DNA of 64,000 nucleotides from a phage, in the sequence record PV467749.1. One strand, given 5' to 3'. Position 1 is the stretch's first letter. The number at the start of each line of letters is the position of its first letter. Shown in pieces: positions 6,858-63,691 of this stretch. A program made the position numbers and the translations under genes. The notes beneath the pieces are model-generated. The model was not told the origin of the DNA. It saw only the letters and a list, made by a program, of their open reading frames with translations, and ran no database searches.

Positions 6858-6885
6858 ATTATACATTACTGGTTAGTACTGTCAA
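6858..6885 (-). promoter_or_regulatory. promoter + 5' stem-loop cassette (PeSL-like)
   Basis: TTGACA-N16-TATAAT, then GAGCGGGGGAATAGTTCTCCCGCC hairpin. Confidence 0.7.
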
Positions 6886-6892
6886 ATAGTTT

Positions 6893-7150
6893 TTATGAAA
6901 TATCTTCGATGTAGTCGGCCCATTTCATTTTTTCAGTACTGTCAATGGCGACCGGATTATTTGGATCAAACCATTCACCATCACCGCAATACATACCCAC
7001 GGCTACGGTTTTATAGCCATCCTGGGCAGTACACCACGACATTGCACGATAGATATGGCCTTTAACTGGTTGCAGTACTGGTAACGTTTTATGGTCTTCT
7101 ACGTAGGCCATAGCTTGTGGATTTACCCGATATTGTGTGAACTGATCCAT
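6893..7150 (-). CDS. hypothetical protein
   Basis: 85-aa ORF with own promoter. Confidence 0.7.
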   Translation of the reverse strand: MDQFTQYRVNPQAMAYVEDHKTLPVLQPVKGHIYRAMSWCTAQDGYKTVAVGMYCGDGEWFDPNNPVAIDSTEKMKWADYIEDIS

Positions 7151-7178
7151 TATGTTTCCCCTTGTAGTTAGTAAAGTT

Positions 7179-7207
7179 ATTACATCAGTACTATCAAGCT
7201 ATGTCAA
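7179..7207 (-). promoter_or_regulatory. sigma70-type promoter
   Basis: TTGACA-N17-TGTAAT; no hairpin. Confidence 0.55.
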
Positions 7208-7226
7208 TAGTACTGAAATAAAACTT

Positions 7227-7451
7227 TTAGATTAGATTATTGAGGCCGTCAATGGTAGACTCACCTTCTTCTTTCTCCCATTGTCGGTAGTACTTCCATG
7301 CTTCATGATAGGTGGCGATTAGTTCATCTTTTTGATCCTGGTTACATGCCAGTACTGAATCACGGTGAGCGGTGTTATAGATAGAATCGAATGATTTCTT
7401 CTCTTCTGCCAGGTTAGCTACTTCCCGCATCAGTTCATCAAAGTTAGCCAT
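7227..7451 (-). CDS. hypothetical protein
   Basis: 74-aa acidic ORF, SD AAGGAG. Confidence 0.7.
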   Translation of the reverse strand: MANFDELMREVANLAEEKKSFDSIYNTAHRDSVLACNQDQKDELIATYHEAWKYYRQWEKEEGESTIDGLNNLI

Positions 7452-7526: not shown

Positions 7527-7782
7527 GTACTTTTTTCATATAAACATTAAATTCTACACCGCCGTAACCTTCCACGATGATATGTTTTGCGTTATCACGT
7601 TTGCACATAGTGAAACCGTTGTTGATGTGTTCTGAATTTTCCAGGGCGACATCACCGATAGCGGCACATACAGCACTAATAACAGTATTCCGCAAAGTAC
7701 TGGTATCATTGGCGGTCATAGTAGTTTGCAGTACTACGTTGTCGTATACGTGTGCATTGATAGTGATTTCGATAGTGTTCAT
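7519..7782 (-). CDS. hypothetical protein
   Basis: Start moved to MNTIEITI (SD AGGAG). The track N-terminus MFYIERGKWF.. is translated cassette sequence. Confidence 0.7.
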   Translation of the reverse strand: MNTIEITINAHVYDNVVLQTTMTANDTSTLRNTVISAVCAAIGDVALENSEHINNGFTMCKRDNAKHIIVEGYGGVEFNVYMKKVLA

Positions 7783-7834
7783 GTTGTATCTCCTGGACTT
7801 GAGGGGAAACCATTTCCCCCTCTCGATATAAAAC

Positions 7835-7862
7835 ATTATACGTTAATCTAACTACAATGCAA
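7835..7862 (-). promoter_or_regulatory. promoter + 5' stem-loop cassette (PeSL-like)
   Basis: TTGCAT-N16-TATAAT + GGGGGAAATGGTTTCCCC hairpin. Confidence 0.7.
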
Positions 7863-47787: not shown

Positions 47788-48939
47788 ATGTTACCTTTTG
47801 CAAGAATGGTTAAGTACGGGAATATTTCACCTGTTCCTGCAACACCAACTATAAAAGATTTTAAGATTGGTTTTACCCATGAAGTGTTATTGGACAGTGC
47901 AGGTGATGTGTGGGGTATTGGATATAATACCGCTGGACAGTTGGGATTTCTGGATGCTAACACAAATTCAATAGGAATGTGGTCTAAGATACATGAGAAT
48001 GTTAGATTAATTGGCGTTACTGCCAAATATACTGTAGTTGTTACAAATGATAATAGAATACTTTACGCCGGAAATAACTTAATTTCTAGTACTACAACGC
48101 TTGGGTGGAACGATATAACGTCCAGTATGGGAGAGGTTGCAGTGGATAGTATAGATACATTATATTGCACAGATGGAATGATGCATATTAAAACTGCTGA
48201 TGGCTCTTTATATGCATATGGACGTAATATGAACGCGAACGCTGGAGTTACAGGCGTTTCTGGCGTTATTAGTGTTGCAACTAAAGTTAATGGTTTACCA
48301 TCGGCAGTGAAGGATATACGATATACGTTTAGTTATGGTTCAGTACTATGCCAATTTGATACCACTTCGGTATATGGATGGGGAAGAAATGTCAATGGTG
48401 AATTAGGTCAGGGGAATGCAGCCGCAGTTCCTGCCCCATACCTATTGGCGGGAGCTTCTATTGTTATAGGTACTTCTTATAATGCTACTGCCATTGTTTC
48501 TGGTACTGGAACGTTAGTTACATGTGGTGGACAAAATAATGGTCAGTTAGGTAATGGTATTACTACTGCTGGTAATGTATACATATATGGTGCTAGGTCA
48601 TACCCTGGCGATCTTAATAATATAAGAAGTCCAGTAGATTGTAGTACAACTTATACTTCCGCATTTATGAGTACAGATGGTATATATTACACGGGTTCGA
48701 ACCGAAGTGTTTTTGGTGGTGCGAGTGGTTCTGCTACTGTTGCATTATATACTAAATGTAGTGATTTGCCAATATTATATTCCAATATAACTCAGTGGGG
48801 TAGTGGTACTATTGGTGGGGCGATATGTAGCAGAACTGAATTATATCAGTGTGGTACAGGTAGATACATTGCCGGAGATGGACAGAACGCAACTAGGTAT
48901 GGGTTTAGAAAGACACCATTACCTTGGGATGTTTATTGA
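47788..48939 (+). CDS. RCC1-like beta-propeller protein, copy 15
   Basis: MLPFARMVKYGNISP. Seven clear blades: VWGIGYNTAGQLG, VYGWGRNVNGELGQG, LVTCGGQNNGQLGNG ... Confidence 0.9.
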   Translation: MLPFARMVKYGNISPVPATPTIKDFKIGFTHEVLLDSAGDVWGIGYNTAGQLGFLDANTNSIGMWSKIHENVRLIGVTAKYTVVVTNDNRILYAGNNLISSTTTLGWNDITSSMGEVAVDSIDTLYCTDGMMHIKTADGSLYAYGRNMNANAGVTGVSGVISVATKVNGLPSAVKDIRYTFSYGSVLCQFDTTSVYGWGRNVNGELGQGNAAAVPAPYLLAGASIVIGTSYNATAIVSGTGTLVTCGGQNNGQLGNGITTAGNVYIYGARSYPGDLNNIRSPVDCSTTYTSAFMSTDGIYYTGSNRSVFGGASGSATVALYTKCSDLPILYSNITQWGSGTIGGAICSRTELYQCGTGRYIAGDGQNATRYGFRKTPLPWDVY

Positions 48940-48944
48940 AATAA

Positions 48945-48975
48945 TGCCAGTACTCAAGTACTGGCATTTCTTTTA
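48945..48975 (+). terminator. terminator between convergent genes
   Basis: TGCCAGTACTcaAGTACTGGCA + TTTCTTTT. Confidence 0.75.
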
Positions 48976-49623
48976 CATATTATATAATGTGAATGCAGTC
49001 ACTTTACCAGTTGTTGTTAGTTCATTATAAAGATACTCCAAGATTCTCGCACACTCTAAGTATATCTCGATATCATCATGAATAAGTGAGTACTGAAATA
49101 GCTGTTCTTCAGGTAATTTGTATTGACTTCCTTTTAATGAATTGAGAATATCTTTCACATCATCAAGTACTGGGTAAAGTACGAAATCTTCATCATATTT
49201 TGAAGCAATAAATTCAAATCCACCACCATCAGTACTAGATATACCAATCAGTACTTTATCAATCAAGTTAATGTTTATATAACGGTTGTGATTTGGGTGA
49301 ATTGAAATCTCAAACATACGAGTACTGTTACAATCAACATCAATATACAAATATACATCATTGAATTTATAAGTTAAACAACCGTACTCAAGAAAATCAG
49401 AACAAATAATTGATGAGTTTTTTCTTGTCTCTGCGTAATGCATCTTGATATTCTTTTCACGCATAAGTAATTCGAACTTTGCACTAAACTTGCCACCAGC
49501 AAGATAGTTAGTATTAGGACGTTTGTAACTTGCAACTGGTCGGTGGGATGATGTAAAGTATTTTTTTGTGAATCGTTTCTGTTTAGTGAAATATTCTTGA
49601 TAGAACTTACTTCTTTTATTCAT
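48973..49623 (-). CDS. hypothetical 216-aa protein inverted inside the RCC1 array; distant paralog of 27818..28477 and 62828..63400
   Basis: Basic N-terminus MNKRSKFYQEYFTKQ (family-2-like); KLPEEQLFQYSLI motif. Confidence 0.75.
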   Translation of the reverse strand: MNKRSKFYQEYFTKQKRFTKKYFTSSHRPVASYKRPNTNYLAGGKFSAKFELLMREKNIKMHYAETRKNSSIICSDFLEYGCLTYKFNDVYLYIDVDCNSTRMFEISIHPNHNRYININLIDKVLIGISSTDGGGFEFIASKYDEDFVLYPVLDDVKDILNSLKGSQYKLPEEQLFQYSLIHDDIEIYLECARILEYLYNELTTTGKVTAFTLYNM

Positions 49624-49700: not shown

Positions 49701-50825
49701 ATGTTACCTTTCGTATTGTTATTTGATTATGGGAACGAAAAACAAGAAAGTTCTTATGATGTTAGTGTATATGGAAACAATAACTACATTTTAAATAAAC
49801 AAACTGGAAACCTTTTTGCATCCGGTGCTGCGGCATTCATGGGTGATAACACAGTTAAGTATTATATTACCCAAATAGAATCAAATGTTCATAGCTGTGA
49901 GATAGGTTTCCTATCATCATGGATAATTAAGAAGGACAAAACTGTTTTCATTTTAGGAAACAAAAGCAGTATAGGATTAACTGGTTCGACAACATCATGG
50001 TTCGAAATTACAAATTTATTTTCTGCTGTTCCTGAAATATGGGACAACCTATTTGAATGTAAAGTTCAATTGGGATATAACTGTATACGTGTTATGACAC
50101 CACTAGGATCAATCTATGCGATTGGTACAAACACTTATGGTGCATTGGGTACTGGTACTACATCCTCATCAACTTCGTTCGTTAAAAGTGGTGCTGTGGA
50201 TGCTGTACGCATGGAATCAACAGAACGTTCAGTGTTCTATCAAAACAGTTCTGGACAATGGTTTGGATGTGGTGATAACACATATGGTATACTAGGTCTA
50301 GGAACTACCGCGAGTCGTGTAAACTCATACACCGCACCAGTATGGACTAATGCAGAAGCTGTTAGCTTCTCTAACCGTGGGATCATATACAGCCTCAATG
50401 GTACTCTATACTCATGTGGTGACAAAGTTAATGGTCAGCTAGGGGATGGATATACACAAAGCATAGACGCTGCCAGGAGCACACCATACACCATAGGAAC
50501 CGCATTCCAAATTGGTAAGGCAATAACATCAGCTACACAAGCATCAGCCAACGTATTCATTGGTAAAGATAATAAGTTCTATGGTACTGGTAGTATTGCT
50601 GCTGGTATAAATGGTAGTACTAGTGCTGCATTAAGTAAAGTTACTGCGTTATCAGCAGCACTACCACCTGACATTACATACAATGATATTATAACATTTA
50701 ATACAGGGACCGTAACTTTTATTCAAGCAAAAGGACAACTATATTATGTTGGTAGAAGAACTTACATAGATAATAGTTCAGACGTTACCACACAGTTCAG
50801 TGTAATTGGTGGCTTAGATAATTAA
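49701..50825 (+). CDS. RCC1-like beta-propeller protein, copy 16
   Basis: MLPFVLLFDYGN; IYAIGTNTYGALGTG, WFGCGDNTYGILGLG, LYSCGDKVNGQLGDG; unique upstream region. Confidence 0.85.
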   Translation: MLPFVLLFDYGNEKQESSYDVSVYGNNNYILNKQTGNLFASGAAAFMGDNTVKYYITQIESNVHSCEIGFLSSWIIKKDKTVFILGNKSSIGLTGSTTSWFEITNLFSAVPEIWDNLFECKVQLGYNCIRVMTPLGSIYAIGTNTYGALGTGTTSSSTSFVKSGAVDAVRMESTERSVFYQNSSGQWFGCGDNTYGILGLGTTASRVNSYTAPVWTNAEAVSFSNRGIIYSLNGTLYSCGDKVNGQLGDGYTQSIDAARSTPYTIGTAFQIGKAITSATQASANVFIGKDNKFYGTGSIAAGINGSTSAALSKVTALSAALPPDITYNDIITFNTGTVTFIQAKGQLYYVGRRTYIDNSSDVTTQFSVIGGLDN

Positions 50826-50831
50826 AATTAA

Positions 50832-50860
50832 TCCAGTACTATTATAGTACTGGATTTTTT
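50832..50860. terminator. bidirectional terminator between convergent arrays
   Basis: TCCAGTACTattatAGTACTGGA flanked by T-runs on both strands. Confidence 0.75.
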
Positions 50861-50861
50861 A

Positions 50862-51233
50862 TTATAACATACGTTTTTTACGAATAGTATTGTGGATATT
50901 TTTTAAGTAGTTCACACCTTTACACAACCCATAAAATACACCAGCACATACACCAAATGCAGGTATCATACATGCAAACATCGTTATCAATTCCCACATC
51001 TCCATGCCATCTTGATTCGGTCCAAGGTCAAAGATAACAACCGAAACCAAACCTGTGATACTTAGCATATAATATGCCATGAAGATAATAAAAGAAACAA
51101 TACCAACATCAGAGCGAACTGAATTTAGCATATTATATACTGGGGTTACACAGAAGTAATACAATAACCAAATCAAAGAACCTAAACTAAACACAATAAT
51201 AGTAATGATCGAAAATATTTCACGATAACTCAT
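50862..51233 (-). CDS. small multi-pass membrane protein, TM family member
   Basis: 123 aa, 3-4 hydrophobic helices, basic tail IHNTIRKKRML. Confidence 0.75.
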   Translation of the reverse strand: MSYREIFSIITIIVFSLGSLIWLLYYFCVTPVYNMLNSVRSDVGIVSFIIFMAYYMLSITGLVSVVIFDLGPNQDGMEMWELITMFACMIPAFGVCAGVFYGLCKGVNYLKNIHNTIRKKRML

Positions 51234-51234
51234 T

Positions 51235-51597
51235 TTAGTTCCTCTTACCTAAACGCTCATGGATTTCGGAAATCTTATTATACATCCATGCCAGCAACTC
51301 AACGGATGCACAGAGAATAACCACACACAGTGTTAGTGAACATACCATAATACCAAATGTTATAAAATTCGAACTCGATGTTAATAATGCAACCAGCATT
51401 AGAATAAAACCAAAATTGAATGCTGTACTCAACACAGTATATGCTGGACTATATCTCCTTTGTATTACATCATATATATTTGATAATGGTCGCTTATGGA
51501 AGTACTTCCCAATGCACACGAATGCATTCAGTGAGAAGATAAATGTATACGCCATTACCATTAATTGACCAATAAAAGATAATTCAATATTATTCAT
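51235..51597 (-). CDS. small multi-pass membrane protein, TM family member
   Basis: 120 aa; tail IHERLGKRN. Confidence 0.75.
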   Translation of the reverse strand: MNNIELSFIGQLMVMAYTFIFSLNAFVCIGKYFHKRPLSNIYDVIQRRYSPAYTVLSTAFNFGFILMLVALLTSSSNFITFGIMVCSLTLCVVILCASVELLAWMYNKISEIHERLGKRN

Positions 51598-51598
51598 G

Positions 51599-51970
51599 TT
51601 ATCCTCGTTTGCGGTATTTGATGCTTTGGTGCATTCTCTGAAAATGTGGAACTAATACATATTGTACGGTTTGCCAAATTACCATCAGATTATGGACAGC
51701 ACCACCGAGTAGACCAAACACTACACAGATAATTGCCAGTACTGGATCACCATCTACCATACCCCATTTGAATATATGTAAAATCCATACAGTGATAAGT
51801 AGTAATAAACTAATCCAATACGTAGTAAAAAATCCTGCATGTAATTCATAGTCATCAGCAATTTCATCGTATACGGTTTCCAAGAAGGATACACAGAAGA
51901 ACTTGCCAATAATAATAATTGTACTAATAAACAACATAGCAGTTAATATAATAAGTGCAATTTCCATCAC
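51599..51970 (-). CDS. small multi-pass membrane protein, TM family member
   Basis: 123 aa; tail MHQSIKYRKRG; ATGA overlap upstream. Confidence 0.75.
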   Translation of the reverse strand: MMEIALIILTAMLFISTIIIIGKFFCVSFLETVYDEIADDYELHAGFFTTYWISLLLLITVWILHIFKWGMVDGDPVLAIICVVFGLLGGAVHNLMVIWQTVQYVLVPHFQRMHQSIKYRKRG

Positions 51971-52281
51971 ATCCCTCGTTTACGCTTTTGATTGCGTCTA
52001 AATTCGGTTAGCCCACGACTAATCGGTGGCATCAGACTACATAAAAAAATAACAGTTGTTGGTAATAACATGAAGTCAATCATTGCTGTATTAACAGGTG
52101 GATCACATACCAAATAATACAAACAAGTAATACTAATTATGGTTGACCCAATAAAAGGAATACAAAATTCTTTTATCTGTTTTTCAACATAATCAAACAT
52201 CTTCAATACAAATAAAAATCCAACCCAACACATAATAAAATAGAATGAATAAAGCGTGTAAATCAATGTTACGATATCCAT
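51967..52281 (-). CDS. small multi-pass membrane protein, TM family member
   Basis: 104 aa; tail EFRRNQKRKRGM. Confidence 0.75.
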   Translation of the reverse strand: MDIVTLIYTLYSFYFIMCWVGFLFVLKMFDYVEKQIKEFCIPFIGSTIISITCLYYLVCDPPVNTAMIDFMLLPTTVIFLCSLMPPISRGLTEFRRNQKRKRGM

Positions 52282-52619
52282 TAGTACCTCGCATCAGGAA
52301 CTTTAGCACGTAATTTATGAACGACTGGGAACAACAACAAACTTACATATGCAATAGTTGAACCCCAATAGAATACTAATATAATTGGTTCACCATTGGA
52401 ACGGAACCCTCTACTAATCATTGAGTAGTGAATAATAGGCATGAACATCGCCATACCAAACCATGCGTGTAATTTTAATTGCAGCATGTTATCAGAGATG
52501 AATACTGAAATTGGTCGTTTGAAGAACCACATCAGAAAGTAGAATCCAGCACTAAGGATATAGTACATAGTACTAACTTTCATATACCACGGCAGTAAGT
52601 GTAAAAAATATTCCATCAT
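52281..52619 (-). CDS. small multi-pass membrane protein, TM family member
   Basis: 112 aa; tail KLRAKVPDARY. Confidence 0.75.
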   Translation of the reverse strand: MMEYFLHLLPWYMKVSTMYYILSAGFYFLMWFFKRPISVFISDNMLQLKLHAWFGMAMFMPIIHYSMISRGFRSNGEPIILVFYWGSTIAYVSLLLFPVVHKLRAKVPDARY

Positions 52620-52963
52620 TCCTCCGGTATCTTGTTTCGAAGTTCAATCATAACACAACAAAGTTTAATGGTCAAGTAAAAAACTACACATATCATACCC
52701 AATGTACCGTAAACTGCGGAGAATGCTGGCAGTACCTTTCCTGTGAGTGTTGCTACAATACATGCTATCAATGTTGATGCAAACAACGATTGATTAATGA
52801 AAGAATTCATAAAATCTTCACCATTACGCTTATAGAATTGTCGTTTAAAATACCATCCTAGAAACATAACTACCCAAAATGTTACATAACCTGTTAGAAT
52901 AATCCCTGCAATTGAATGTGCAACAGAACTACTCTTTAAAAACTCAAGATAAGATTCAAACAT
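52616..52963 (-). CDS. small multi-pass membrane protein, TM family member
   Basis: 115 aa; tail ELRNKIPEE. Confidence 0.75.
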   Translation of the reverse strand: MFESYLEFLKSSSVAHSIAGIILTGYVTFWVVMFLGWYFKRQFYKRNGEDFMNSFINQSLFASTLIACIVATLTGKVLPAFSAVYGTLGMICVVFYLTIKLCCVMIELRNKIPEE

Positions 52964-53301
52964 TAGAAGTCCCCACGAATTTTTGCTCTACCATTAATGA
53001 TGAGATTAAACAAGTATATCAGCACCCAAATTAGTAATCCAAGGAATACAATATATTGTGATATTGAGTTCAACTGTGGATTAGCACAATAAATTAAGTG
53101 TGCGATAAGACCAACAATTGCAAACATACCTTGGATAATAGTGAAAAGAAGTAGTGAAATGTTTCCATCTGGATACAGTTTGAAAACGATTTTCTTTTTA
53201 AAATACCATAGTACTACAACTAGTGCATGATAAAAGAAAAAACCAAACAGATAAATCAAAGTAATACTAAGCATTGTATCTGAATTAAAAAACTCAAGCA
53301 T
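52963..53301 (-). CDS. small multi-pass membrane protein, TM family member (first of the operon)
   Basis: 112 aa; tail INGRAKIRGDF. Confidence 0.75.
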   Translation of the reverse strand: MLEFFNSDTMLSITLIYLFGFFFYHALVVVLWYFKKKIVFKLYPDGNISLLLFTIIQGMFAIVGLIAHLIYCANPQLNSISQYIVFLGLLIWVLIYLFNLIINGRAKIRGDF

Positions 53302-53330
53302 ATCGTATCTCCGGTGGTGAATATTAAGTT

Positions 53331-53359
53331 ATAGTACTACACTATGGTAGTACTGTCAA
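53331..53359 (-). promoter_or_regulatory. sigma70-type promoter for the membrane-protein operon
   Basis: TTGACA-N17-TACTAT. Confidence 0.65.
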
Positions 53360-53368
53360 TACATGTAA

Positions 53369-54142
53369 TTAAATTTTCTCAAGGAACATGTTTTCTGCCA
53401 TTGACTCCCAATCATATGGAAATTTATTATACAGACCAGCGATCAGTACTGGCATACGCAGAGAAGGTGAACGCAGCTTTTCTTCGTTGTTCAGCATCCA
53501 GTTTAAGATAGCTTTACAACCATTTTTATTAACCCCATTGTTCTCAAGAATATTAGTCTTGTTCATGATGTTCTCAATGTGAATCATAACTTCTTCGTTA
53601 GTGAACAGTTGAAGATCAACAAAGATACTACGAGTAATCAGTGCATCAATGTGTGGTGCTAAACTGCTTTTACCTTTAGCAATCTGTGACAGGTTTTTGT
53701 TCGTCAGGAAGATTACCTTCCCACGGAATTCAAACTGCTTAGGAATACCCTGCTGTTCCAGGTACTTCCCAGAAGTTGCATAAGATACAACCCGCTTCTC
53801 TGAAGTATCCAGTACTGCTTTGAGCAAGTCAATGTTGGTTTCATCGCTGAAGATATCAACGTCATCAAGTAACAGTACTGAAGCGGCATGACGTGAACGA
53901 TACAGTGCTTCGTACAAACCCATAGTGGTTACTTTACCGCTGATCTTTTTGTAGTCGATTTCAAAGTTATCATCAGCTTTCTGTAAACGCTGGTCAACGT
54001 TGTAAGTTTTACCAACACCACCTTTACCAGATACAATCAGGGAATTGATTGAATTAGCTTGGGTATCAAGTAAACATTCCAAAGCTGCCATCATGCTGTT
54101 GAAGTTCTTTTCGATTTGGATTGCTTTCTCTGTACGGGTCAT
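53369..54142 (-). CDS. P-loop NTPase (AAA-like ATPase)
   Basis: 257 aa; Walker A SGKGGVGKT, Walker B VLLLDDVD, sensor-like FLTN. Confidence 0.85.
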   Translation of the reverse strand: MTRTEKAIQIEKNFNSMMAALECLLDTQANSINSLIVSGKGGVGKTYNVDQRLQKADDNFEIDYKKISGKVTTMGLYEALYRSRHAASVLLLDDVDIFSDETNIDLLKAVLDTSEKRVVSYATSGKYLEQQGIPKQFEFRGKVIFLTNKNLSQIAKGKSSLAPHIDALITRSIFVDLQLFTNEEVMIHIENIMNKTNILENNGVNKNGCKAILNWMLNNEEKLRSPSLRMPVLIAGLYNKFPYDWESMAENMFLEKI

Positions 54143-54170
54143 GTATTCATCCTCTCGTCTTGATGAAATA

Positions 54171-54210
54171 ATTATAGCAAAAAGGGCTGACCGAAGTCAA
54201 CCCTTTTTTC
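54171..54210 (-). promoter_or_regulatory. terminator-promoter fusion cassette
   Basis: GGGTTGAC-TTCG-GTCAGCCC hairpin + T5, with TTGACT as the -35; N18; TATAAT. The HNH gene's TGA stop lies inside GGGTTGACT. Confidence 0.7.
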
Positions 54211-54610
54211 TTTCAATCAAACATAGTCTACCAGAATGTACCATGCGATGGTGATTAGAACAAAGAATCATACACTTTCGAATTTCATCTTTGATAGCAT
54301 CTCGACTTTTACTGAACATAGAACTTGGTGTATGTTCTTTGGTATTAGGGTCAAGATGGTGAAAGTCTAAACATTCTGGATACTTCATCATACAAACACT
54401 ACAACCATAAAATGATTTAACTCTGGTCATGAAATCTTTATTTTTTCTTTTGATTTCTTCAAGTTTTTTGACATCAGTTTTTTTATTTCTGGTTTTCTTA
54501 CTGGTAATATTACTACAACCTTTGCATGTATTTCTATGTTTCCCAGTATCACTTCTTATACCAAATTCACTAATGTCTTTTTCAATATTACACGTGATAC
54601 ACTTCTTCAT
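54197..54610 (-). CDS. HNH endonuclease (free-standing, homing-endonuclease-like)
   Basis: 137 aa; Cys pairs CITC, CKGC, CSVC; LDFHHLDP..K..; ILCSNHHRMVH. Confidence 0.85.
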   Translation of the reverse strand: MKKCITCNIEKDISEFGIRSDTGKHRNTCKGCSNITSKKTRNKKTDVKKLEEIKRKNKDFMTRVKSFYGCSVCMMKYPECLDFHHLDPNTKEHTPSSMFSKSRDAIKDEIRKCMILCSNHHRMVHSGRLCLIERKKG

Positions 54611-54912
54611 TGTTTAATCCATTTATTCAACAATGCACCCAACTTCACAATCTCATACCCATCCAGATAGCCATAGGAACACTCAGGTGTTTCATAAGTT
54701 GAACCATCATGGATACCTTGGCATTGGCTTTTGGAACGTTCAAGCAATCGTTGCAGTACTGATACGTCATCAAGAACGTAATACAAGTTAGCATATGGGT
54801 CCGTCACAATACAGTACTTAAACATACCAAATGTATCAATCGATTTTTCAACCTTAGCAAATTGTTTCTTTTCTTTATTATACAGTGCGTACATATTAAT
54901 CTCCACAATCAA
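54607..54912 (-). CDS. hypothetical protein
   Basis: 101-aa ORF; ATGA overlap with the HNH gene. Confidence 0.7.
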   Translation of the reverse strand: MIVEINMYALYNKEKKQFAKVEKSIDTFGMFKYCIVTDPYANLYYVLDDVSVLQRLLERSKSQCQGIHDGSTYETPECSYGYLDGYEIVKLGALLNKWIKQ

Positions 54913-55267
54913 GTTTAACTAACTTACCACCCAGATACCCAAAGTTTTCTGGCTTCGCATCTGAATAGAAGAAGTCAGTACTCAACTCTGAATCCAATGC
55001 TAAAGCACACAACTCCACCCAAAATAAACCCCTATGTTGTACTGGCTTACAACGTTTCTGTACAGTTACTAGTCCAGTACATGATGACCACAACGTAGGG
55101 CAGATACCACTATCACTACGCTTGGAGTACTGCATCCAAGAACGTTCATTGAGGTTAGCTATCATCCCTGTTAAGAATAGCTTCCAACTTTTAAAGGTTG
55201 GAATCTTGATAGCATATTCCCCAATGAGTATGACAGTTCGGGTTGCACCTTTCAAATCTATATTCAT
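54896..55267 (-). CDS. minimal protein-kinase-like protein (second copy of the architecture)
   Basis: 123 aa; YAIKIP (Lys), DAKPENFG (catalytic loop D-x-K-P-x-N), KLDCGD (DFG-like) at the very C-terminus. Confidence 0.6.
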   Translation of the reverse strand: MNIDLKGATRTVILIGEYAIKIPTFKSWKLFLTGMIANLNERSWMQYSKRSDSGICPTLWSSCTGLVTVQKRCKPVQHRGLFWVELCALALDSELSTDFFYSDAKPENFGYLGGKLVKLDCGD

Positions 55268-55276
55268 ATTTTTTAA

Positions 55277-55528
55277 TTAGAAGAACACAAACCAAGTCCA
55301 GAATAAATTCCACACTACAAATAAAGACATAGTGGTTTTATGTACAATATCAGCAGTACTGGTCCATCCTCCACCGTGTCCTATTCCATTTATGAATAGA
55401 ACTAAGAACAAGATACCATTTACTACAATAGTACATAGTAAGTACACAAACACATTCCATGCAAGTTCAGGGGATACTAACGTAAATGGTAAAACAATTA
55501 GTAGTATTAGAACTAATAAAATTTTCAT
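55277..55528 (-). CDS. small membrane protein
   Basis: 83 aa, three hydrophobic segments. Confidence 0.7.
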   Translation of the reverse strand: MKILLVLILLIVLPFTLVSPELAWNVFVYLLCTIVVNGILFLVLFINGIGHGGGWTSTADIVHKTTMSLFVVWNLFWTWFVFF

Positions 55529-55556
55529 TTATCGCCTCACTTAATTAACGTGACAA

Positions 55557-55733
55557 TTAGTACGAATCAGATTCCCAGTACTCGATTGCTTCTTTCAGCA
55601 ATTCTTTAGCACGTTGTTTTGCAATGCGAGCGGGTAACAGATATGTGTACATTAACTGACGCTTCACTTCATTCAGTGAAAGCTGTTCATGGTACAGTGC
55701 ATCCATCAGTCGATTACGAGTACGTAGTTTCAT
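55557..55733 (-). CDS. hypothetical small protein (58 aa, below cutoff)
   Basis: My translation: MKLRTRNRLMDALYHEQLSLNEVKRQLMYTYLLPARIAKQRAKELLKEAIEYWESDSY. SD AAGGATAA; replaces antisense track ORF 55619..55822. Confidence 0.55.
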   Translation of the reverse strand: MKLRTRNRLMDALYHEQLSLNEVKRQLMYTYLLPARIAKQRAKELLKEAIEYWESDSY

Positions 55734-55744
55734 ATAAGTTATCC

Positions 55745-56299
55745 TTATTTCAAAGAATCATAGTAAGCAGTGTCAAAGATTGGAGTCATAATAACATAGT
55801 CAATACGGTCAATGTAAGTTGAACTCCACATTTCTGGTTTGTCATAAAATTGACGCTCGCGTTCATTCATACGAGTCAGTACTTCTTCCAATTTACTACG
55901 TGAAGCCATCAATGTATTACGCGATCCATAAGTGAAGTACTCAGTCCATTGATATTCATATTCAGTACTGATAGATTGAATAGTACCATCTTTGAAATGA
56001 GCTAAGGCATATCCTTTCTCTACAAAGTTATCAGGTGGAAGAACACTATCTGGATTAGTTTTCAATGCTTTGGTTAACTTTTCTTTAATTTCAGTTAACG
56101 TGCATACTGAACGAATGTTCTTCAGGTTTGATACTTGAAAATCACTGTACTTTCCAAAGAAAAATACACGCCAATCTTTAGGTTCATTATCAGATACGGT
56201 AATATTCGGATGATGGGCGAGTAAACGAAGAAGGCCAGCTTTGTGACCGTTAATGTAGATCTCATGGATGTGGTTAGCAGTTTTCTTAAAAGTAATCAT
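55745..56299 (-). CDS. hypothetical protein
   Basis: Start moved to MITFKKTANH (SD GAGGAA); 184 aa. Confidence 0.8.
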   Translation of the reverse strand: MITFKKTANHIHEIYINGHKAGLLRLLAHHPNITVSDNEPKDWRVFFFGKYSDFQVSNLKNIRSVCTLTEIKEKLTKALKTNPDSVLPPDNFVEKGYALAHFKDGTIQSISTEYEYQWTEYFTYGSRNTLMASRSKLEEVLTRMNERERQFYDKPEMWSSTYIDRIDYVIMTPIFDTAYYDSLK

Positions 56300-56355
56300 G
56301 ACAATTCCTCGATTGTGGGATGAGAAGTTCATCCCCTTGATAAACATTATACAGT

Positions 56356-56383
56356 ACTGAATGAGTTTGTCAACTCAAAATAA
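56356..56383 (-). promoter_or_regulatory. promoter + 5' stem-loop cassette (PeSL-like)
   Basis: TTGACA-N16-TATAAT + GGGATGAacttcTCATCCC hairpin; overlaps the 3' end of 56375..56755. Confidence 0.7.
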
Positions 56384-56755
56384 ATTCATTTCATGTGCGT
56401 ATTGTGGTTCAAGATGCGATAAGTTTTTGAAGCTTTCTTTCAACTCAGCATCATCTACATACACCGTGCCTGGTACATTCCCCATAGTGAAACCTACCCA
56501 CACAGTCATGTCACCAGTCCCTAAGCGTGGCATTGATAGCGAACCATCAGGTGAAACATCAAACGCTACACTGAAGTCATCAGTAACAACGTCAGAACCA
56601 TTTTCGAGAATAATACATCCACTATCTTTAAGCTTCTGAATGTGGATAGCAGCCTCTACAGCACGTTTGAAGTTATAGTAAGACTCTTTATCCTCAAACA
56701 TTGATTGTTTAATCAGACGCTTGTTTAGCTCGGTTACTTTGTGCATTTGACGCAT
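56375..56755 (-). CDS. hypothetical protein
   Basis: 126-aa ORF. Confidence 0.75.
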   Translation of the reverse strand: MRQMHKVTELNKRLIKQSMFEDKESYYNFKRAVEAAIHIQKLKDSGCIILENGSDVVTDDFSVAFDVSPDGSLSMPRLGTGDMTVWVGFTMGNVPGTVYVDDAELKESFKNLSHLEPQYAHEMNLF

Positions 56756-57012
56756 TACTTATCCATCTCCCACAGTTGTAGAATTTCATAAGAGCCTGGT
56801 GGTGCTGGATTCCTGATCTCAGGGAATTGAGTACTTTTAGGATTTCCACCAGCATTAAATTCGTCAAGTAATGATTCCAGTTCGCGACGATCCTGAACAA
56901 CATAAACACAATCACCTGAACCTTCTTCGAGAATCATTTCACTTCCTGCACAATCCCATACTGTTGAGATACATAGAATCTCTTTTGTATTTTTATTACG
57001 CAATGCAAACAT
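56755..57012 (-). CDS. hypothetical protein
   Basis: 85-aa ORF; 1-nt overlap with the downstream start. Confidence 0.7.
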   Translation of the reverse strand: MFALRNKNTKEILCISTVWDCAGSEMILEEGSGDCVYVVQDRRELESLLDEFNAGGNPKSTQFPEIRNPAPPGSYEILQLWEMDK

Positions 57013-57020
57013 AGCACCCC

Positions 57021-57365
57021 CTATCGATTTGGCATTTTATCTCGTAATCTAATGAGATAATCAACCACAGACCATGTTGAAATGAAAGTGATATAAGTAC
57101 CGAAGAATCCTACCAGAATAAAGGCAACAAGTGTACTCCCATTTGGATCTTCAGCTTTAATACCGATGATACCATCAAATACAGTGAAAAATGTAGACAT
57201 ACACGTTAAACAGATGTACATCACCAATAAGAATTCATGTTTCAATGATGGATATAAACGGTCAAAGAGTTTATAAAATTTAAAGTACAGTAGGAGTATA
57301 CCAACAAAGACATAGAAAGTAAACAGTGTTGTTATGATATATGATATTAAATTTAAATTATACAT
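57021..57365 (-). CDS. small multi-pass membrane protein, TM family member
   Basis: Start set at MYNLNLISY (2 nt after the upstream stop); tail LIRLRDKMPNR. Confidence 0.7.
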   Translation of the reverse strand: MYNLNLISYIITTLFTFYVFVGILLLYFKFYKLFDRLYPSLKHEFLLVMYICLTCMSTFFTVFDGIIGIKAEDPNGSTLVAFILVGFFGTYITFISTWSVVDYLIRLRDKMPNR

Positions 57366-57366
57366 C

Positions 57367-57714
57367 TCAACGCTCCGGTAGATTATCACGTAATGTTTTG
57401 ATTCGATTATACAATTTCATTGCTACATTTCCAAATAAACCAAAACCCATTACTAAAATGTATGCGATGATCATAGTAATAATTACAATAGTACCTAGAC
57501 TGTAATGTACTGCACTGATACCCATTATTGTTTCTACAATGATGTGAGCAACAGAAATAATCAAAAGTACTACTACAATTGGATGATTTGGATACATTCG
57601 GTTAAACAATGTTTTGTACTTAAAGAAGTACAGTACTCCACCAAATAAGAAGTACACAATGTAGATTGATGCAACTGCATAAGCAAACGCATTAGTGTAA
57701 AAAATCATTATCAA
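57367..57714 (-). CDS. small multi-pass membrane protein, TM family member
   Basis: 115 aa; tail IKTLRDNLPER. Confidence 0.75.
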   Translation of the reverse strand: MIMIFYTNAFAYAVASIYIVYFLFGGVLYFFKYKTLFNRMYPNHPIVVVLLIISVAHIIVETIMGISAVHYSLGTIVIITMIIAYILVMGFGLFGNVAMKLYNRIKTLRDNLPER

Positions 57715-57717
57715 TCC

Positions 57718-58056
57718 TTACTTTTCAGGGATTTTATTACGCCACTCATCGATGCGATGAAGCAGTTTAAAGAGCAAAAATATCGGAACAGTAGCTATCA
57801 TAGTAGCAATTGTTAGTAATGTCAACACCGATACGAGATTTAATTCGTCAGTACTATATCCACATACCAGTGCTTCAATTATCCCCCACGTACATACACT
57901 GAACATCAAAAATGAAATTGGTGCATCGTAGTATATGCGTTGATACAAGGTCGTGTATCGGAAGAATGCAATAATGTAACAAAACATGTAATACACCCAA
58001 ATTAACGATACTACATAAAATGATACCTTATTAATTAATTCAAAATGATGTTCCAT
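57718..58056 (-). CDS. small multi-pass membrane protein, TM family member
   Basis: 112 aa; tail IDEWRNKIPEK (compare ELRNKIPEE at 52616). Confidence 0.75.
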   Translation of the reverse strand: MEHHFELINKVSFYVVSLIWVYYMFCYIIAFFRYTTLYQRIYYDAPISFLMFSVCTWGIIEALVCGYSTDELNLVSVLTLLTIATMIATVPIFLLFKLLHRIDEWRNKIPEK

Positions 58057-58065
58057 TTTTACCCC

Positions 58066-58341
58066 CTACATATATTCTAAGAATAATGTATTAGCTTCGT
58101 CTATGTTCTTAAGATAATACATGTAATACAGATTTGGTTGTCCGTCTTTTGAACTCAAATCAAAGTACTTTAAACTATGCACCTTCATGACAAAAACAAA
58201 TAATGACTTAAAACCAATCTCACCGTACTTAATAAACAGTTCATCTAAATGAATGTAACTCTTAGTTTCAGATAATTCCTTCACATCATCTTCAATTTCT
58301 TGTAAGCGAAGTTTACCGATTAAGTTTTCAAATGAACGCAT
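58066..58341 (-). CDS. hypothetical protein
   Basis: Start set at MRSFENL (SD AAGGAA); the track start 58368 overlaps the upstream gene. Confidence 0.65.
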   Translation of the reverse strand: MRSFENLIGKLRLQEIEDDVKELSETKSYIHLDELFIKYGEIGFKSLFVFVMKVHSLKYFDLSSKDGQPNLYYMYYLKNIDEANTLFLEYM

Positions 58342-58352
58342 GATGTTGTTCC

Positions 58353-58766
58353 TTATGCTGGTACACAATTTTTTATAATGAATACACGTTTCATGAATGA
58401 ACTTTCATATACGTACTTCAGTTTACCATTTTCACGCATACGATGAAACACATCTTTACCGCTAGTACTCCATGTTGAACCAGTCTCTGCATCAACATTG
58501 TTCATTACACCAGATGTTACATTCACCCCGTACTTGAAGCTAAAGGTACTACCTTCTTCTACTAGAGGGATTGGTGTACTACGTTCATGTTCCAGTACAA
58601 GTTTACTGCCGATGATGTTGTACGAAGTTAGCTTGCATTTTAAAACACCCATCTCTTGTGCAGTTGGGTAATTCTTCTCAAATAAATCAGATACTTCATT
58701 TGCATAACAAACTGAACTAATCATAAGAAGTAATGAACTGATAGAACGGAAAATAACTTTTAACAT
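58353..58766 (-). CDS. secreted protein (signal peptide, two-Cys family)
   Basis: MLKVIFRSISSLLLMISSVCYA|NEV; Cys at VLKC and 3 residues from the C-terminus (IKNCVPA). Confidence 0.75.
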   Translation of the reverse strand: MLKVIFRSISSLLLMISSVCYANEVSDLFEKNYPTAQEMGVLKCKLTSYNIIGSKLVLEHERSTPIPLVEEGSTFSFKYGVNVTSGVMNNVDAETGSTWSTSGKDVFHRMRENGKLKYVYESSFMKRVFIIKNCVPA

Positions 58767-58792: not shown

Positions 58793-58832
58793 ATTATAGC
58801 AAAAAGGGCCGACCGAAGTCAACCCTTTTCTT
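58793..58832 (-). promoter_or_regulatory. terminator-promoter fusion cassette
   Basis: GGGTTGAC-TTCG-GTCGGCCC hairpin + T-run; TTGACT-N18-TATAAT. Confidence 0.7.
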
Positions 58833-59207
58833 TTATATTTTACATGTCATGTCTGGTTTTGGCTTTTCATTCTTTGGCTTTTCAAATGGATTTGGCTTAG
58901 GGGACTTTTTATCTTTGTCATCTTTAGCTTTCTTTTTGTTTTCTTTTTTATCCGATTTGTCAGCTTTGTCTTTCTTATCTTTTGAATCTTTGTCAGCTTT
59001 AGATTGTGGTTCCTCACATACAGCAGTTTTTGGCTCCGGCATATCACATGAGTTATCCACTGGTTTAATGAACTCTTTACAGTTGTAGAAGTATAAACTT
59101 TCATTGGTAGTAAGATTGTGGAATCTAAAGGTATTTTCACCATTAGTATATACTTTCTTAGTACTCTCAATATCATTACACATTGCAACTGTGTCACCGG
59201 AATTCAT
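58833..59207 (-). CDS. hypothetical protein with Lys/Asp-rich low-complexity tail
   Basis: 124 aa; C-terminal KADKDSKDKKDKADKSDKKENKKKAKDDKDKK; preferred over alternative frame 58847..59197. Confidence 0.6.
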   Translation of the reverse strand: MNSGDTVAMCNDIESTKKVYTNGENTFRFHNLTTNESLYFYNCKEFIKPVDNSCDMPEPKTAVCEEPQSKADKDSKDKKDKADKSDKKENKKKAKDDKDKKSPKPNPFEKPKNEKPKPDMTCKI

Positions 59208-59445
59208 GCTCGATACCTATTACATCCGACTTACGTTCAGATAGTATTCCAGACGTATATCGATCTTTGTTATCAAATGCATTGAACCCTATAGTTTTAT
59301 TATTGTCATGTACCAATCCTCTAGTGTAAGACTTGGTATAGAACTCACCGTTTCTAAACTCCTGTCTAGCAATGGAGCACTGGTATTCAGTACTATAAAC
59401 TATATCAGTAAACAATACAAGTGAAAATAAAACATATTTAAACAT
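59194..59445 (-). CDS. small secreted protein (signal peptide)
   Basis: MFKYVLFSLVLFTDIVYS|TEYQC..; 83 aa. Confidence 0.65.
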   Translation of the reverse strand: MFKYVLFSLVLFTDIVYSTEYQCSIARQEFRNGEFYTKSYTRGLVHDNNKTIGFNAFDNKDRYTSGILSERKSDVIGIEHEFR

Positions 59446-61407: not shown

Positions 61408-61665
61408 TCACTTCTCCTGTTTTTTCTTAGGATCAACCAATGACCAAATGAAGAATCCGAGAATTACAAGTACCCACAGAATCATGATAAAGAAAGCAAA
61501 CAGTACAATAGTATTTGTCAAAAAGAAATACAATAGAATGTTCGACCCAATACTACATACAATCAATGCAGCTTCATGTTTAACAACACGAATGGCTGTA
61601 ATGAGTGCGGGAAGAAATCCGACAAATAACAGTACTAATGCATATAGTGATAATGTTTCAGCCAT
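61408..61665 (-). CDS. small membrane protein
   Basis: 85 aa, three hydrophobic helices, basic tail. Confidence 0.7.
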   Translation of the reverse strand: MAETLSLYALVLLFVGFLPALITAIRVVKHEAALIVCSIGSNILLYFFLTNTIVLFAFFIMILWVLVILGFFIWSLVDPKKKQEK

Positions 61666-63454: not shown

Positions 63455-63691
63455 TTATTTTTTAATAGATTCATAAAGCAGAAACAACCAAATAAACATT
63501 GATGAACAAACTACTACTGGGATTAATGTAAATTCAGTAAAGAATAAAAGTATTCCATAAGTTAGTATGCAACATAAGTTTACGTACATAATTGCTTCTG
63601 CATTTTTATTTTTCATTTTATATGCAATGAATGTTGGTGACCACATTACCAAAAATGCAAACAACGCACATATGATGATTATAGTTTCCAT
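63455..63691 (-). CDS. small membrane protein
   Basis: 78 aa, 2-3 hydrophobic helices; SD GGAGGTG. Confidence 0.75.
   Translation of the reverse strand: METIIIICALFAFLVMWSPTFIAYKMKNKNAEAIMYVNLCCILTYGILLFFTEFTLIPVVVCSSMFIWLFLLYESIKK

Follow-up and report, generated by a model that had tools for sequence, protein, structure and literature searches.

Ten minus-strand genes in a 64,000-nucleotide stretch of phage DNA (sequence record PV467749.1; the whole stretch is referred to below as the window) encode small proteins with three predicted transmembrane (TM) segments, and profile comparisons give good support to the view that all ten belong to one divergent family. Seven of the genes form array A (50862-53301; A1 to A7 in transcription order from 53301 downwards), and three form cluster B (57021-58056; B1 to B3), 4 kb from array A. 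Judged by comparison with related phages, the seven positions of array A are ancient and differentiated and not recent copies, cluster B is a younger expansion of the subfamily termed S1 below, and the arrays are hypervariable cassettes within conserved flanks. As to function, we favour, with a rough probability of 0.4, the reading that the products are early, accessory inner-membrane conflict proteins that act individually.

Escherichia phage WPEC3 matches the region 50000-58500 with 98.6% identity across its full length, which places the window in Asteriusvirus; the other 350-385 kb PBECO4/121Q-like jumbo phages of this genus match the same region with 85-98% identity. The GC content of the window is about 35%. 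An earlier reading made from the sequence alone (the sequence-only reading) had described seven minus-strand genes of 104-123 amino acids (aa) and three further members, ten in all. The listing of open reading frames (ORFs) agrees, with seven consecutive ORFs of 112, 115, 112, 104, 123, 120 and 123 aa in array A and three in cluster B, and family hidden Markov models (HMMs) match exactly ten ORFs in the window. All ten are annotated as hypothetical coding sequences in WPEC3, where B2 and B3 start at internal ATGs equivalent to window positions 57708 and 57365, which are the probable starts of these genes (Table 1). There is no other 3-TM ORF of 100-125 aa in the window. Further small 3-TM ORFs that the family HMMs miss lie at 61408-61665 and 63455-63691, at 10154-11255 of L009 (labels of this form are our own designations for compared sequences) and in phage K64-1 (gp393; L020 7214-7573); the distal ORFs in the arrays of L009 and K64-1 may be still more divergent members.

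One divergent family

The paralogy proposed by the sequence-only reading is not apparent from BLASTP for most pairs, since this program links only B1, B2 and B3 (E 2e-12 for B1-B2 and 2e-9 for B2-B3) and A1-A2 weakly, but it was recovered when profiles were compared with one another under suitable controls. For this, orthologs were collected from eight further genomes and a protein database and clustered into ortholog groups, whose profiles were compared with hhalign. Links were obtained for A1-B (95%, P 3e-8, 97 columns), A2-A3 (94%, P 1.7e-7, 87 columns), A2-B (93%, P 2.6e-7, 95 columns), A5-A7 (89%, P 2e-6, 118 columns) and A5-A6 (72%, P 3.5e-5, 54 columns). The scores of the within-subfamily links range from 26.7 to 49.5, whereas the top score among 64 forward-versus-reversed nulls was 21.8. 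Across the subfamilies, single groups gave lower values: 25% for A6-B (score 25.9, 78 columns), 16% for A5-B (score 24.2, 79 columns) and 11% for A4-A7 (score 22.6, 86 columns). When the groups were merged, S1 (A1, A2, A3 and B) and S2 (A5, A6 and A7) were linked at 93.4% (P 2.4e-7, 111 columns), and merged S2 was linked to A4 at 69% (P 4e-5), while S1 and A4 gave 5.6%. Two unrelated families of small membrane proteins from the same phages reached P values of at least 0.019 against single-group profiles and at least 0.23 against merged ones, and reversed merged controls gave P values of at least 0.04. Furthermore, bridging distant members match the HMMs of both subfamilies (for example L017_4601, with 1e-6 for S1 and 2e-9 for S2), and the shared motifs W-[YF]-F-K after TM1 and R/H-x-x-phi in the tail align in register. 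By these comparisons homology exceeds the background expected from TM composition and all ten members are linked, so that a single family consisting of S1 (A1-A3 and B1-B3), S2 (A5-A7) and an A4 type is well supported, with A4 as the softest link.

A competing explanation is that the resemblance is merely convergent, among unrelated hydrophobic ORFs of like size, or that the ORFs are not real genes. Most BLASTP pairs are non-significant, comparisons of TM-protein profiles are prone to compositional false positives, and the PHROGs database spreads the members over seven families: nine of the ten match PHROGs 19454, 19046, 27396, 33258, 26405, 27618 and 19285, all of 'unknown function', with E values of 1e-46 to 1e-61 except for a weak match of B3 (4e-4, phrog_19285), and A6 matches none. 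What are seven separate families in PHROGs form here one superfamily in a conserved array. Against convergence stand the reversed and unrelated-family controls, which do not exceed 21.8, together with the bridging sequences and the motifs in register; against the absence of real genes stand purifying selection (see below) and conservation across two genera. We regard this explanation as largely refuted and hardly credible, apart from the softness of the A4 link.

Positional orthology and distribution

The module has the same order in every lineage: an ATPase homolog directly 5', then two to six S1-type genes, none to two A4-type genes and three S2-type genes. The ATPase followed by S1, A4-type and S2 genes was found in the window, Turkey5, JNE01, phage A4, PBECO4, ph0011, UE-S1, K64-1/RaK2, L017 and L009. 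Best-hit analysis assigned collinear orthologs to A1 and A3-A7 (Table 1), and such positional orthologs far outscore the paralogs within a genome; A7 and gp392 of K64-1 give 82 bits, compared with 23 bits for A7 and its best paralog in the window. The seven-fold differentiation is therefore older than the split between the Escherichia and Klebsiella phage genera.

The closest parallel in other genera is found in K64-1 and RaK2. In K64-1, gp383 ('P-loop NTPase') precedes gp384-gp393, of which six bear the label 'membrane protein'; gp386-gp393 have the same order as array A behind the same ATPase, with the pairs given in Table 1. The counterparts in K64-1 and RaK2, annotated only as 'membrane protein' or 'hypothetical protein', have only 24-39% identity to the proteins of the window. 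K64-1 also differs in having four S1-type genes and one A5/A6-like gene, and its array is followed by a DUF1190 outer-membrane lipoprotein and a ClpP-like protease, whereas the array of the window adjoins RCC1-like genes. Among the other lineages, ph0011 and UE-S1 have an extra A1 and Turkey5 and JNE01 an extra A4; L017 is without A1, phage A4 has a single B copy, and L009, with its six S1 genes, shows no clear A4 type. Large copy-number swings in Turkey5 and JNE01 were considered and rejected, because the 'extra' proteins Tb3, Tb5, Tb6 and T8, like K64-1 gp384, are soluble and unrelated.

Searches of Pfam, NCBIfam, PADLOC and PDB sequences with the family gave nothing meaningful; weak matches (DUF973, EmrD, MnhG and others) lie far below the curated cut-offs and were dismissed as noise from TM composition, and among the PADLOC defence profiles only A6 had a match (E 0.084, to a 2-TM effector). 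A pattern scan of IMG/VR found no relatives. The family comprises 27 clusters in an index of 5.8 billion proteins, and an exhaustive HMM search of 1.84 billion representatives gave 18 with E <= 1e-3. Searches by tblastn with A2 or B1 found 36 phage records (Escherichia 32, Salmonella 4), and those with the K64-1 ortholog of A7 found 45 (Escherichia 32, Klebsiella 9, Salmonella 4). The contigs with remote matches show the same arrangement, and one of them is 96-98% identical to the Klebsiella phages RaK2, K64-1 and Muenster. In the record of ph0011 the labels 'Phi92_gp231/233/234' are attached to the ATPase, to the A1 ortholog and to an ORF of 270 nt, which hints at relatives in phage phi92; no record of a phi92-like phage was found by tblastn with A2, B1 and the K64-1 ortholog gp392. 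These searches give good support for an orphan family that occurs only in RaK2/PBECO4-like jumbo phages (Asteriusvirus, and Alcyoneusvirus with RaK2 and K64-1) of Enterobacteriaceae. We found no description of the array in the literature searched.

Hypervariable cassettes in conserved flanks

The flanking proteins of the window are 76-100% identical to those of Turkey5 and JNE01 (ATPase 96-99%, n123 94-97%, the protein of 55277-55528 99%), whereas every array member is only 25-54% identical. At the nucleotide level, homology of 84-92% reaches about 140 nt into A1 and also covers 54619-56793, and it is lost over both arrays. The split between haplotypes within the genus (32-53% identity) comes close in depth to that between genera (24-39%), while the corresponding values for the ATPase are 96% and 54%. 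In comparisons with close relatives, dN/dS of the array genes was 0.10-0.56, with one noisy value of 0.84 at a dS of 0.04; the genes are thus under purifying selection.

The protein of 55277-55528, a small membrane protein of 83 aa outside the family, retains 96-99% identity between all the genomes in which it occurs, even where the arrays are only about 35% identical, and it provides an internal contrast to the arrays. The ATPase is itself mosaic, with 96-99% identity to Turkey5 and JNE01 and 59-60% to PBECO4, UB and phage A4, although the adjacent array is closer to that of PBECO4; a recombination breakpoint lies between the ATPase gene and A1.

Membrane topology

In a Kyte-Doolittle scan, nine of the ten proteins showed exactly three TM segments when the threshold was strict, and A3 did so at a relaxed one. 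Of the three to four hydrophobic helices described in the sequence-only reading, consistent TM helices were thus present in all ten, but their number is three, both by hydropathy and in AlphaFold2 (AF2) models. The models of B1 (predicted local distance difference test, pLDDT, 70; helices 2-31, 35-41, 45-68 and 72-108) and A5 (pLDDT 63; helices 2-24, 26-39, 43-67 and 75-121) share a layout of TM1, a short helix in loop 1, TM2, and a TM3 that continues into the C-terminal helix. Among 92 distinct members from nine genomes, loop 1 and the C-terminal tail together contain a mean of 7.4 lysines and arginines, compared with 0.9 in the N-terminus and loop 2. The predicted topology for all subfamilies is N-out/C-in, with a periplasmic N-terminus and with the K/R-rich loop 1 and the basic C-terminal helix in the cytoplasm.

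The basic tails noted earlier are of the LRxK[IV]P type in A2, A3 and B1-B3 and K/R-rich in A4, A5 and A7. In S1 proteins, the F-K at the cytoplasmic end of TM1 and the R of the tail motif L-R-x-K/N-phi-P are both invariant. The tails of S2 and A4 carry phi-H/R-x-x-phi and, after it, a run of K/R. Identity by segment is 43% in the N-terminus, 42% in TM1, 46% in loop 1, 30% in TM2, 34% in loop 2, 24% in TM3 and 40% in the tail, so that TM2-loop 2-TM3 is the most variable part (24-34%, compared with 40-46% elsewhere). A focus of conservation on the cytoplasmic face was considered, but the trend is too slight for such a claim, the subfamily-invariant residues (the F-K that follows TM1 and the R of the tail) being the only ones located on that side.

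Operon structure and promoters

With the ATG starts of WPEC3, four of the six junctions in array A are 1-nt overlaps (TAATG or TGATG), and A5/A6 and A6/A7 are separated by 1-nt spacers. The 1- or 4-nt overlaps of the sequence-only reading therefore hold for the first four junctions and not for the last two; the overlaps at A3 and A5 become 4 nt if an alternative upstream ATG or GTG start is used. A core Shine-Dalgarno (SD) match precedes eight of the ten genes, and for internal genes it is embedded in the final codons of the gene before. The two exceptions, A2 and B1, have G-rich runs in its place. The richness of the C-termini in R, K, E and G codons is partly explained by these embedded sites, although A7, the last gene, has a basic tail without this constraint. 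It is well supported that the seven A genes are a co-transcribed and translationally coupled operon.

The proposed promoter TTGACA-N17-TACTAT was found on the minus strand at 53359-53331, with its spacer spanned by a GTACTAC/GTAGTAC palindrome. Bare consensus matches are not special in this AT-rich window (49 sites, compared with 48 expected in shuffles). The array promoter is nevertheless credible, because TTGAC[AG]-N17-TAC[TA]AT is conserved in position in six genomes (the window, WPEC3, PBECO4, ph0011, Turkey5 and JNE01) in which the surrounding bases differ, and because the class with the extended -35 element TTGACAGTACTA is enriched: eight sites with at most one mismatch were found in the window, compared with 0.71 expected, all on the minus strand. 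Five of the eight lead into a -10-like hexamer, a ribosome-binding site (RBS) and ATG. The pattern of this class is TTGACAGTACT[AC], 11 nt, a -10-like hexamer and then RBS and ATG, with -35 elements starting at 6885, 10270, 10546, 14005 and 53359 on the minus strand; copies of the extended element with one mismatch also occur inside B1 (57825) and at 59170. From its sequence, the array promoter appears to be of sigma-70 type, of a phage-specific class served by the host RNA polymerase (RNAP). For cluster B, a candidate operon promoter with 11 of 12 consensus positions was placed further upstream (Table 1); the gap between the upstream gene and B1 is only 9 nt.

The -10 hexamer TACTAT of the array promoter derives from an octamer, AGTACTAT, that occurs 52 times in the window compared with 4.3 expected (12-fold), 33 of the copies in crudely defined non-coding DNA. 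It often forms close inverted pairs that make hairpin terminators (for example 7187/7207, 11306/11328, 14845/14865, 18234/18254, 23152/23169 and 50835/50844), the last being the basis of the hairpin downstream of A7 (Table 1). The octamer is built on the ScaI palindrome AGTACT and has the look of a regulatory or punctuation signal used throughout the phage.

The related phage PA5oct relies on host RNAP, and TTGAC/TATAATA motifs surround its transcription start sites (PMC7318152). In phage CBB, RpoD-like promoters are concentrated among short ORFs suspected of being early host-takeover genes (PMC5259590). In PBECO4, ph0011, UE-S1 and phAPEC6, cluster B lies just 3' of a T7 gp0.7-like kinase. 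From the conserved promoter, the enriched class, these comparisons and the kinase beside cluster B, we infer that the array would be transcribed early by host RNAP.

Possible function

If the products are conflict factors, the host sigma-70 RNAP would transcribe the array early from the phage-specific promoter class, and the proteins would insert into the host inner membrane as accessory factors, each of them dispensable. They might block the entry of DNA from superinfecting phages, or they might neutralise host proteins of defence or transport that are associated with the membrane. The paralogs would each be directed at a different target, and none would act in lysis or as a component of the virion. 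We favour this reading because of the cassette pattern, the natural loss of a single member, the gains and losses between lineages, and a neighbourhood directed at the envelope, with the DUF1190 outer-membrane lipoprotein after the array in K64-1 and L017 and signal-peptide ORFs in the operon of cluster B. The hypervariable cassette in conserved flanks was not previously known and fits such a function.

The functional analogy that we favour is with superinfection-exclusion proteins. T4 Imm and Sp, HK97 gp15 and P22 SieA are small, non-essential, early inner-membrane proteins that act at the host envelope. The promoter class, the absence from a virion proteome and the natural deletions of the present family would fit early, non-essential proteins outside the virion, as Imm and Sp are. 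It has no match to Imm, Sp or other described superinfection-exclusion families in Pfam (including Imm), among annotated PHROGs or in NCBIfam, and it differs from these proteins, which are encoded by single genes, in being a conserved array of seven differentiated paralogs.

A place in the virion was examined through phAPEC6, whose orthologs are gp012c-017c and gp028c-029c. These are absent from the 62-protein virion proteome of that phage, in which the adjacent RCC1-like ('DNA condensation') proteins are present (PMC7247149). It is well supported that the family is not found in the virion, with the caveat, taken up below, that concerns small hydrophobic proteins.

A role as holins, antiholins or regulators of lysis timing is disfavoured; the sequence-only reading had named holin or antiholin control, next to superinfection exclusion and interference with host membrane systems, as a typical link of such arrays. 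With about 100 aa, three predicted TM helices, a predicted N-out/C-in topology and a basic cytoplasmic tail, the proteins share the design of class I holins such as lambda S105 and P2 Y, and A3 (ATG-ATG) and A5 (GTG-ATG) have possible double starts. Against the idea, these starts have no intervening basic residue of the kind in the lambda S107/S105 motif. The family differs from class I holins in sequence, in its ten copies, which would be unprecedented, in its location away from lysis genes, and in a sigma-70-type promoter among short accessory ORFs, which is not a late-gene context. No match to holin families was found in Pfam (E <= 1) or NCBIfam (E <= 0.1). Among ten neighbouring proteins scanned there was no lysis-related Pfam match, the immediate neighbours being the ATPase and an RCC1-like gene, and the WPEC3 annotation of this stretch has no endolysin and no spanin. 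The endolysin of the clade, which has an N-terminal TM domain, is represented in 121Q by the homolog gp532 (PMC5259590), far from the arrays at gp207-232 of that phage. We consider a function in lysis very unlikely.

A weightier rival is that the seven paralogs together build a single hetero-oligomeric assembly in the inner membrane, for example a channel, a gate or a remodelling scaffold, perhaps together with the NrdC.10-like ATPase and with coupling that sets the stoichiometry. The order S1, A4-type, S2 and the 1:1 orthologs are kept across Asteriusvirus, Alcyoneusvirus and other lineages at less than 40% identity, the members of one cassette diverge together, adjacent genes overlap or are spaced by 1 nt and have SD sites embedded at their junctions, and the array lies directly 3' of the ATPase gene in every array-bearing lineage, with zero gap in L009, K64-1 and L017. 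On the other side, the jumbo phage XaC1, in which the ATPase gene abuts RCC1-like genes, and T4-like phages have the ATPase without any array, and in the window the conserved promoter stands between the two. In Salmonella phage SD-2_S15 (L008), whose identity to PBECO4 in this region is 99.7%, the A2 ortholog has lost 144 nt in frame and is left with 66 aa (TM1, TM3 and the tail), and the ATPase is truncated to 96 aa, while the other genes are intact (the altered spans are 7036-7236 and 7558-7848); at least A2 is thus dispensable, if the assembly is correct. Nor would a fixed set of subunits be expected from the absence of A1 in L017, the single A5/A6-like and four S1 genes of K64-1, or the six S1 genes of L009 without a clear A4 type. 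TM3 and TM2, where packing of subunits would be expected, are least conserved, and cluster B stands alone, without S2 or A4 partners. Taken together, we judge such an assembly unlikely, though it is the rival that deserves most attention.

The ATPase is about 40% identical to T4 NrdC.10, with homologs in about 1,300 phage records, and no function was found for NrdC.10 in the literature. It was considered as an obligate partner of the array and rejected, because XaC1 and T4-like phages have it without the array and SD-2_S15 keeps the array with a truncated ATPase. The likeness to T4 ends with this gene: the downstream NrdC.9, NrdC.8 and NrdC.7 are unrelated to the array, including NrdC.7, a membrane protein near NrdC.10 that was compared as a candidate relative. 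Other Salmonella phages of the SD series also show partial coverage of A2.

Several points weigh against individually acting conflict factors. In the literature searched we found no functional, timing or localisation experiment on any member in any phage. Strict 1:1 collinear orthology and translational coupling are what would be expected of the subunits of one complex. The topology is based on hydropathy, the positive-inside rule and AF2 models of medium confidence (pLDDT 63-70); the asymmetry of conservation across the membrane is only mild, and no exposed 'target-binding' surface stands out. Positive selection was not detected (dN/dS < 1), and the cassette pattern could reflect mosaic recombination of old alleles and not an arms race. 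The deletions in SD-2_S15 could be host-associated gene decay or assembly artefacts, and small hydrophobic proteins are easily missed by mass spectrometry of virions. The 'diversified set of membrane targets' that the sequence-only reading proposed is possible, but the picture is not that of a recent amplification, and ancient, differentiated and collinear positions fit a multi-subunit assembly equally well.

Neighbouring genes

The array and its surroundings are summarized in Table 1. Several RCC1-repeat paralogs adjoin the array (49701-50825, plus strand, and 47000-49000). One such gene separates A7 from a 216-aa gene (48973-49623), which directly follows A7 in PBECO4 and ph0011. A 137-aa Cys/His-rich ORF at 54197-54610, annotated as an HNH endonuclease in WPEC3, occurs in no other compared genome than the window, WPEC3 and ph0011 and probably represents the insertion of a mobile homing endonuclease. 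The operon upstream of cluster B (58353-58766, 58833-59207 and 59194-59445) encodes two signal-peptide proteins and a K/D-rich low-complexity protein with KDKKDK repeats; in PBECO4, ph0011, UE-S1 and phAPEC6 a region with the T7 gp0.7-like protein kinase replaces the segment 58353-59445.

Table 1. Array A, cluster B and associated features of the window
Feature	Coordinates	Strand	Description	C-terminal tail	Collinear orthologs (best-hit analysis)
A1	52963..53301	-	112 aa, 3-TM, S1; S1 HMM 5e-34	...GRAKIRGDF	Turkey5 T1, K64-1 gp388
A2	52616..52963	-	115 aa, 3-TM, S1	ELRNKIPEE	
A3	52281..52619	-	111-112 aa, 3-TM (weaker hydropathy), S1	KLRAKVPDARY	Turkey5 T3, K64-1 gp389, L017 U2
A4	51967..52281	-	104 aa, 3-TM, own A4-type branch	EFRRNQKRKRGM	Turkey5 T4a, K64-1 gp390, L017 U3
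A5	51599..51970	-	122-123 aa, 3-TM, S2	MHQSIKYRKRG	Turkey5 T5, K64-1 gp391, L017 U4
A6	51235..51597	-	120 aa, 3-TM, S2	EIHERLGKRN	Turkey5 T6, L017 U5
A7	50862..51233	-	123 aa, 3-TM, S2; last gene of the array	NIHNTIRKKRML	Turkey5 T7, K64-1 gp392 (E 1e-24), L017 U6
B1	57718..58056	-	112 aa, 3-TM, S1	EWRNKIPEK	
B2	57367..57708	-	113 aa (ORF to 57714), 3-TM, S1	TLRDNLPER	
B3	57021..57365	-	114 aa (ORF to 57389), 3-TM, S1	RLRDKMPNR	
Upstream neighbour	53369..54142	-	257-aa AAA+-type ATPase, T4 NrdC.10 homolog		
Array promoter	53331..53359	-	TTGACA-N17-TACTAT with extended -35 element, in the 67-nt gap between the ATPase gene and A1		
Candidate cluster B promoter	58793..58822	-	TTGACT-18-TATAAT, putative		
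Hairpin	50830..50856		12 bp, AATCCAGTACTAT-loop-ATAGTACTGGATT, between the convergent A7 and RCC1-like genes; likely bidirectional terminator		

Implications

RaK2/PBECO4-like jumbo phages are under development for therapy, and more than 80% of their genes have no known function. With the present analysis, seven 'unknown' PHROG families and ten anonymous ORFs per genome become one defined, testable module. It is small (2.4 kb), so that direct cloning, deletion and assay are feasible. One bolder version of the assembly, which we hold to be somewhat less probable still, is a hetero-oligomeric membrane machine (a gate or channel for DNA or ions, or a scaffold), perhaps serviced by the ATPase, whose subunits co-evolve as interchangeable cassettes and which is unique to RaK2/PBECO4-like jumbo phages; if true, phages would thereby build a membrane complex of a new kind, one to which no characterised complex is related. 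The combination of an ancient architecture with exchange of hypervariable cassettes is a pattern typical of loci of phage-phage or phage-host conflict. If the proteins exclude competitors or disarm membrane-linked defences, as the reading that we favour would have it, they would have an effect on the design of phage cocktails and on host range.

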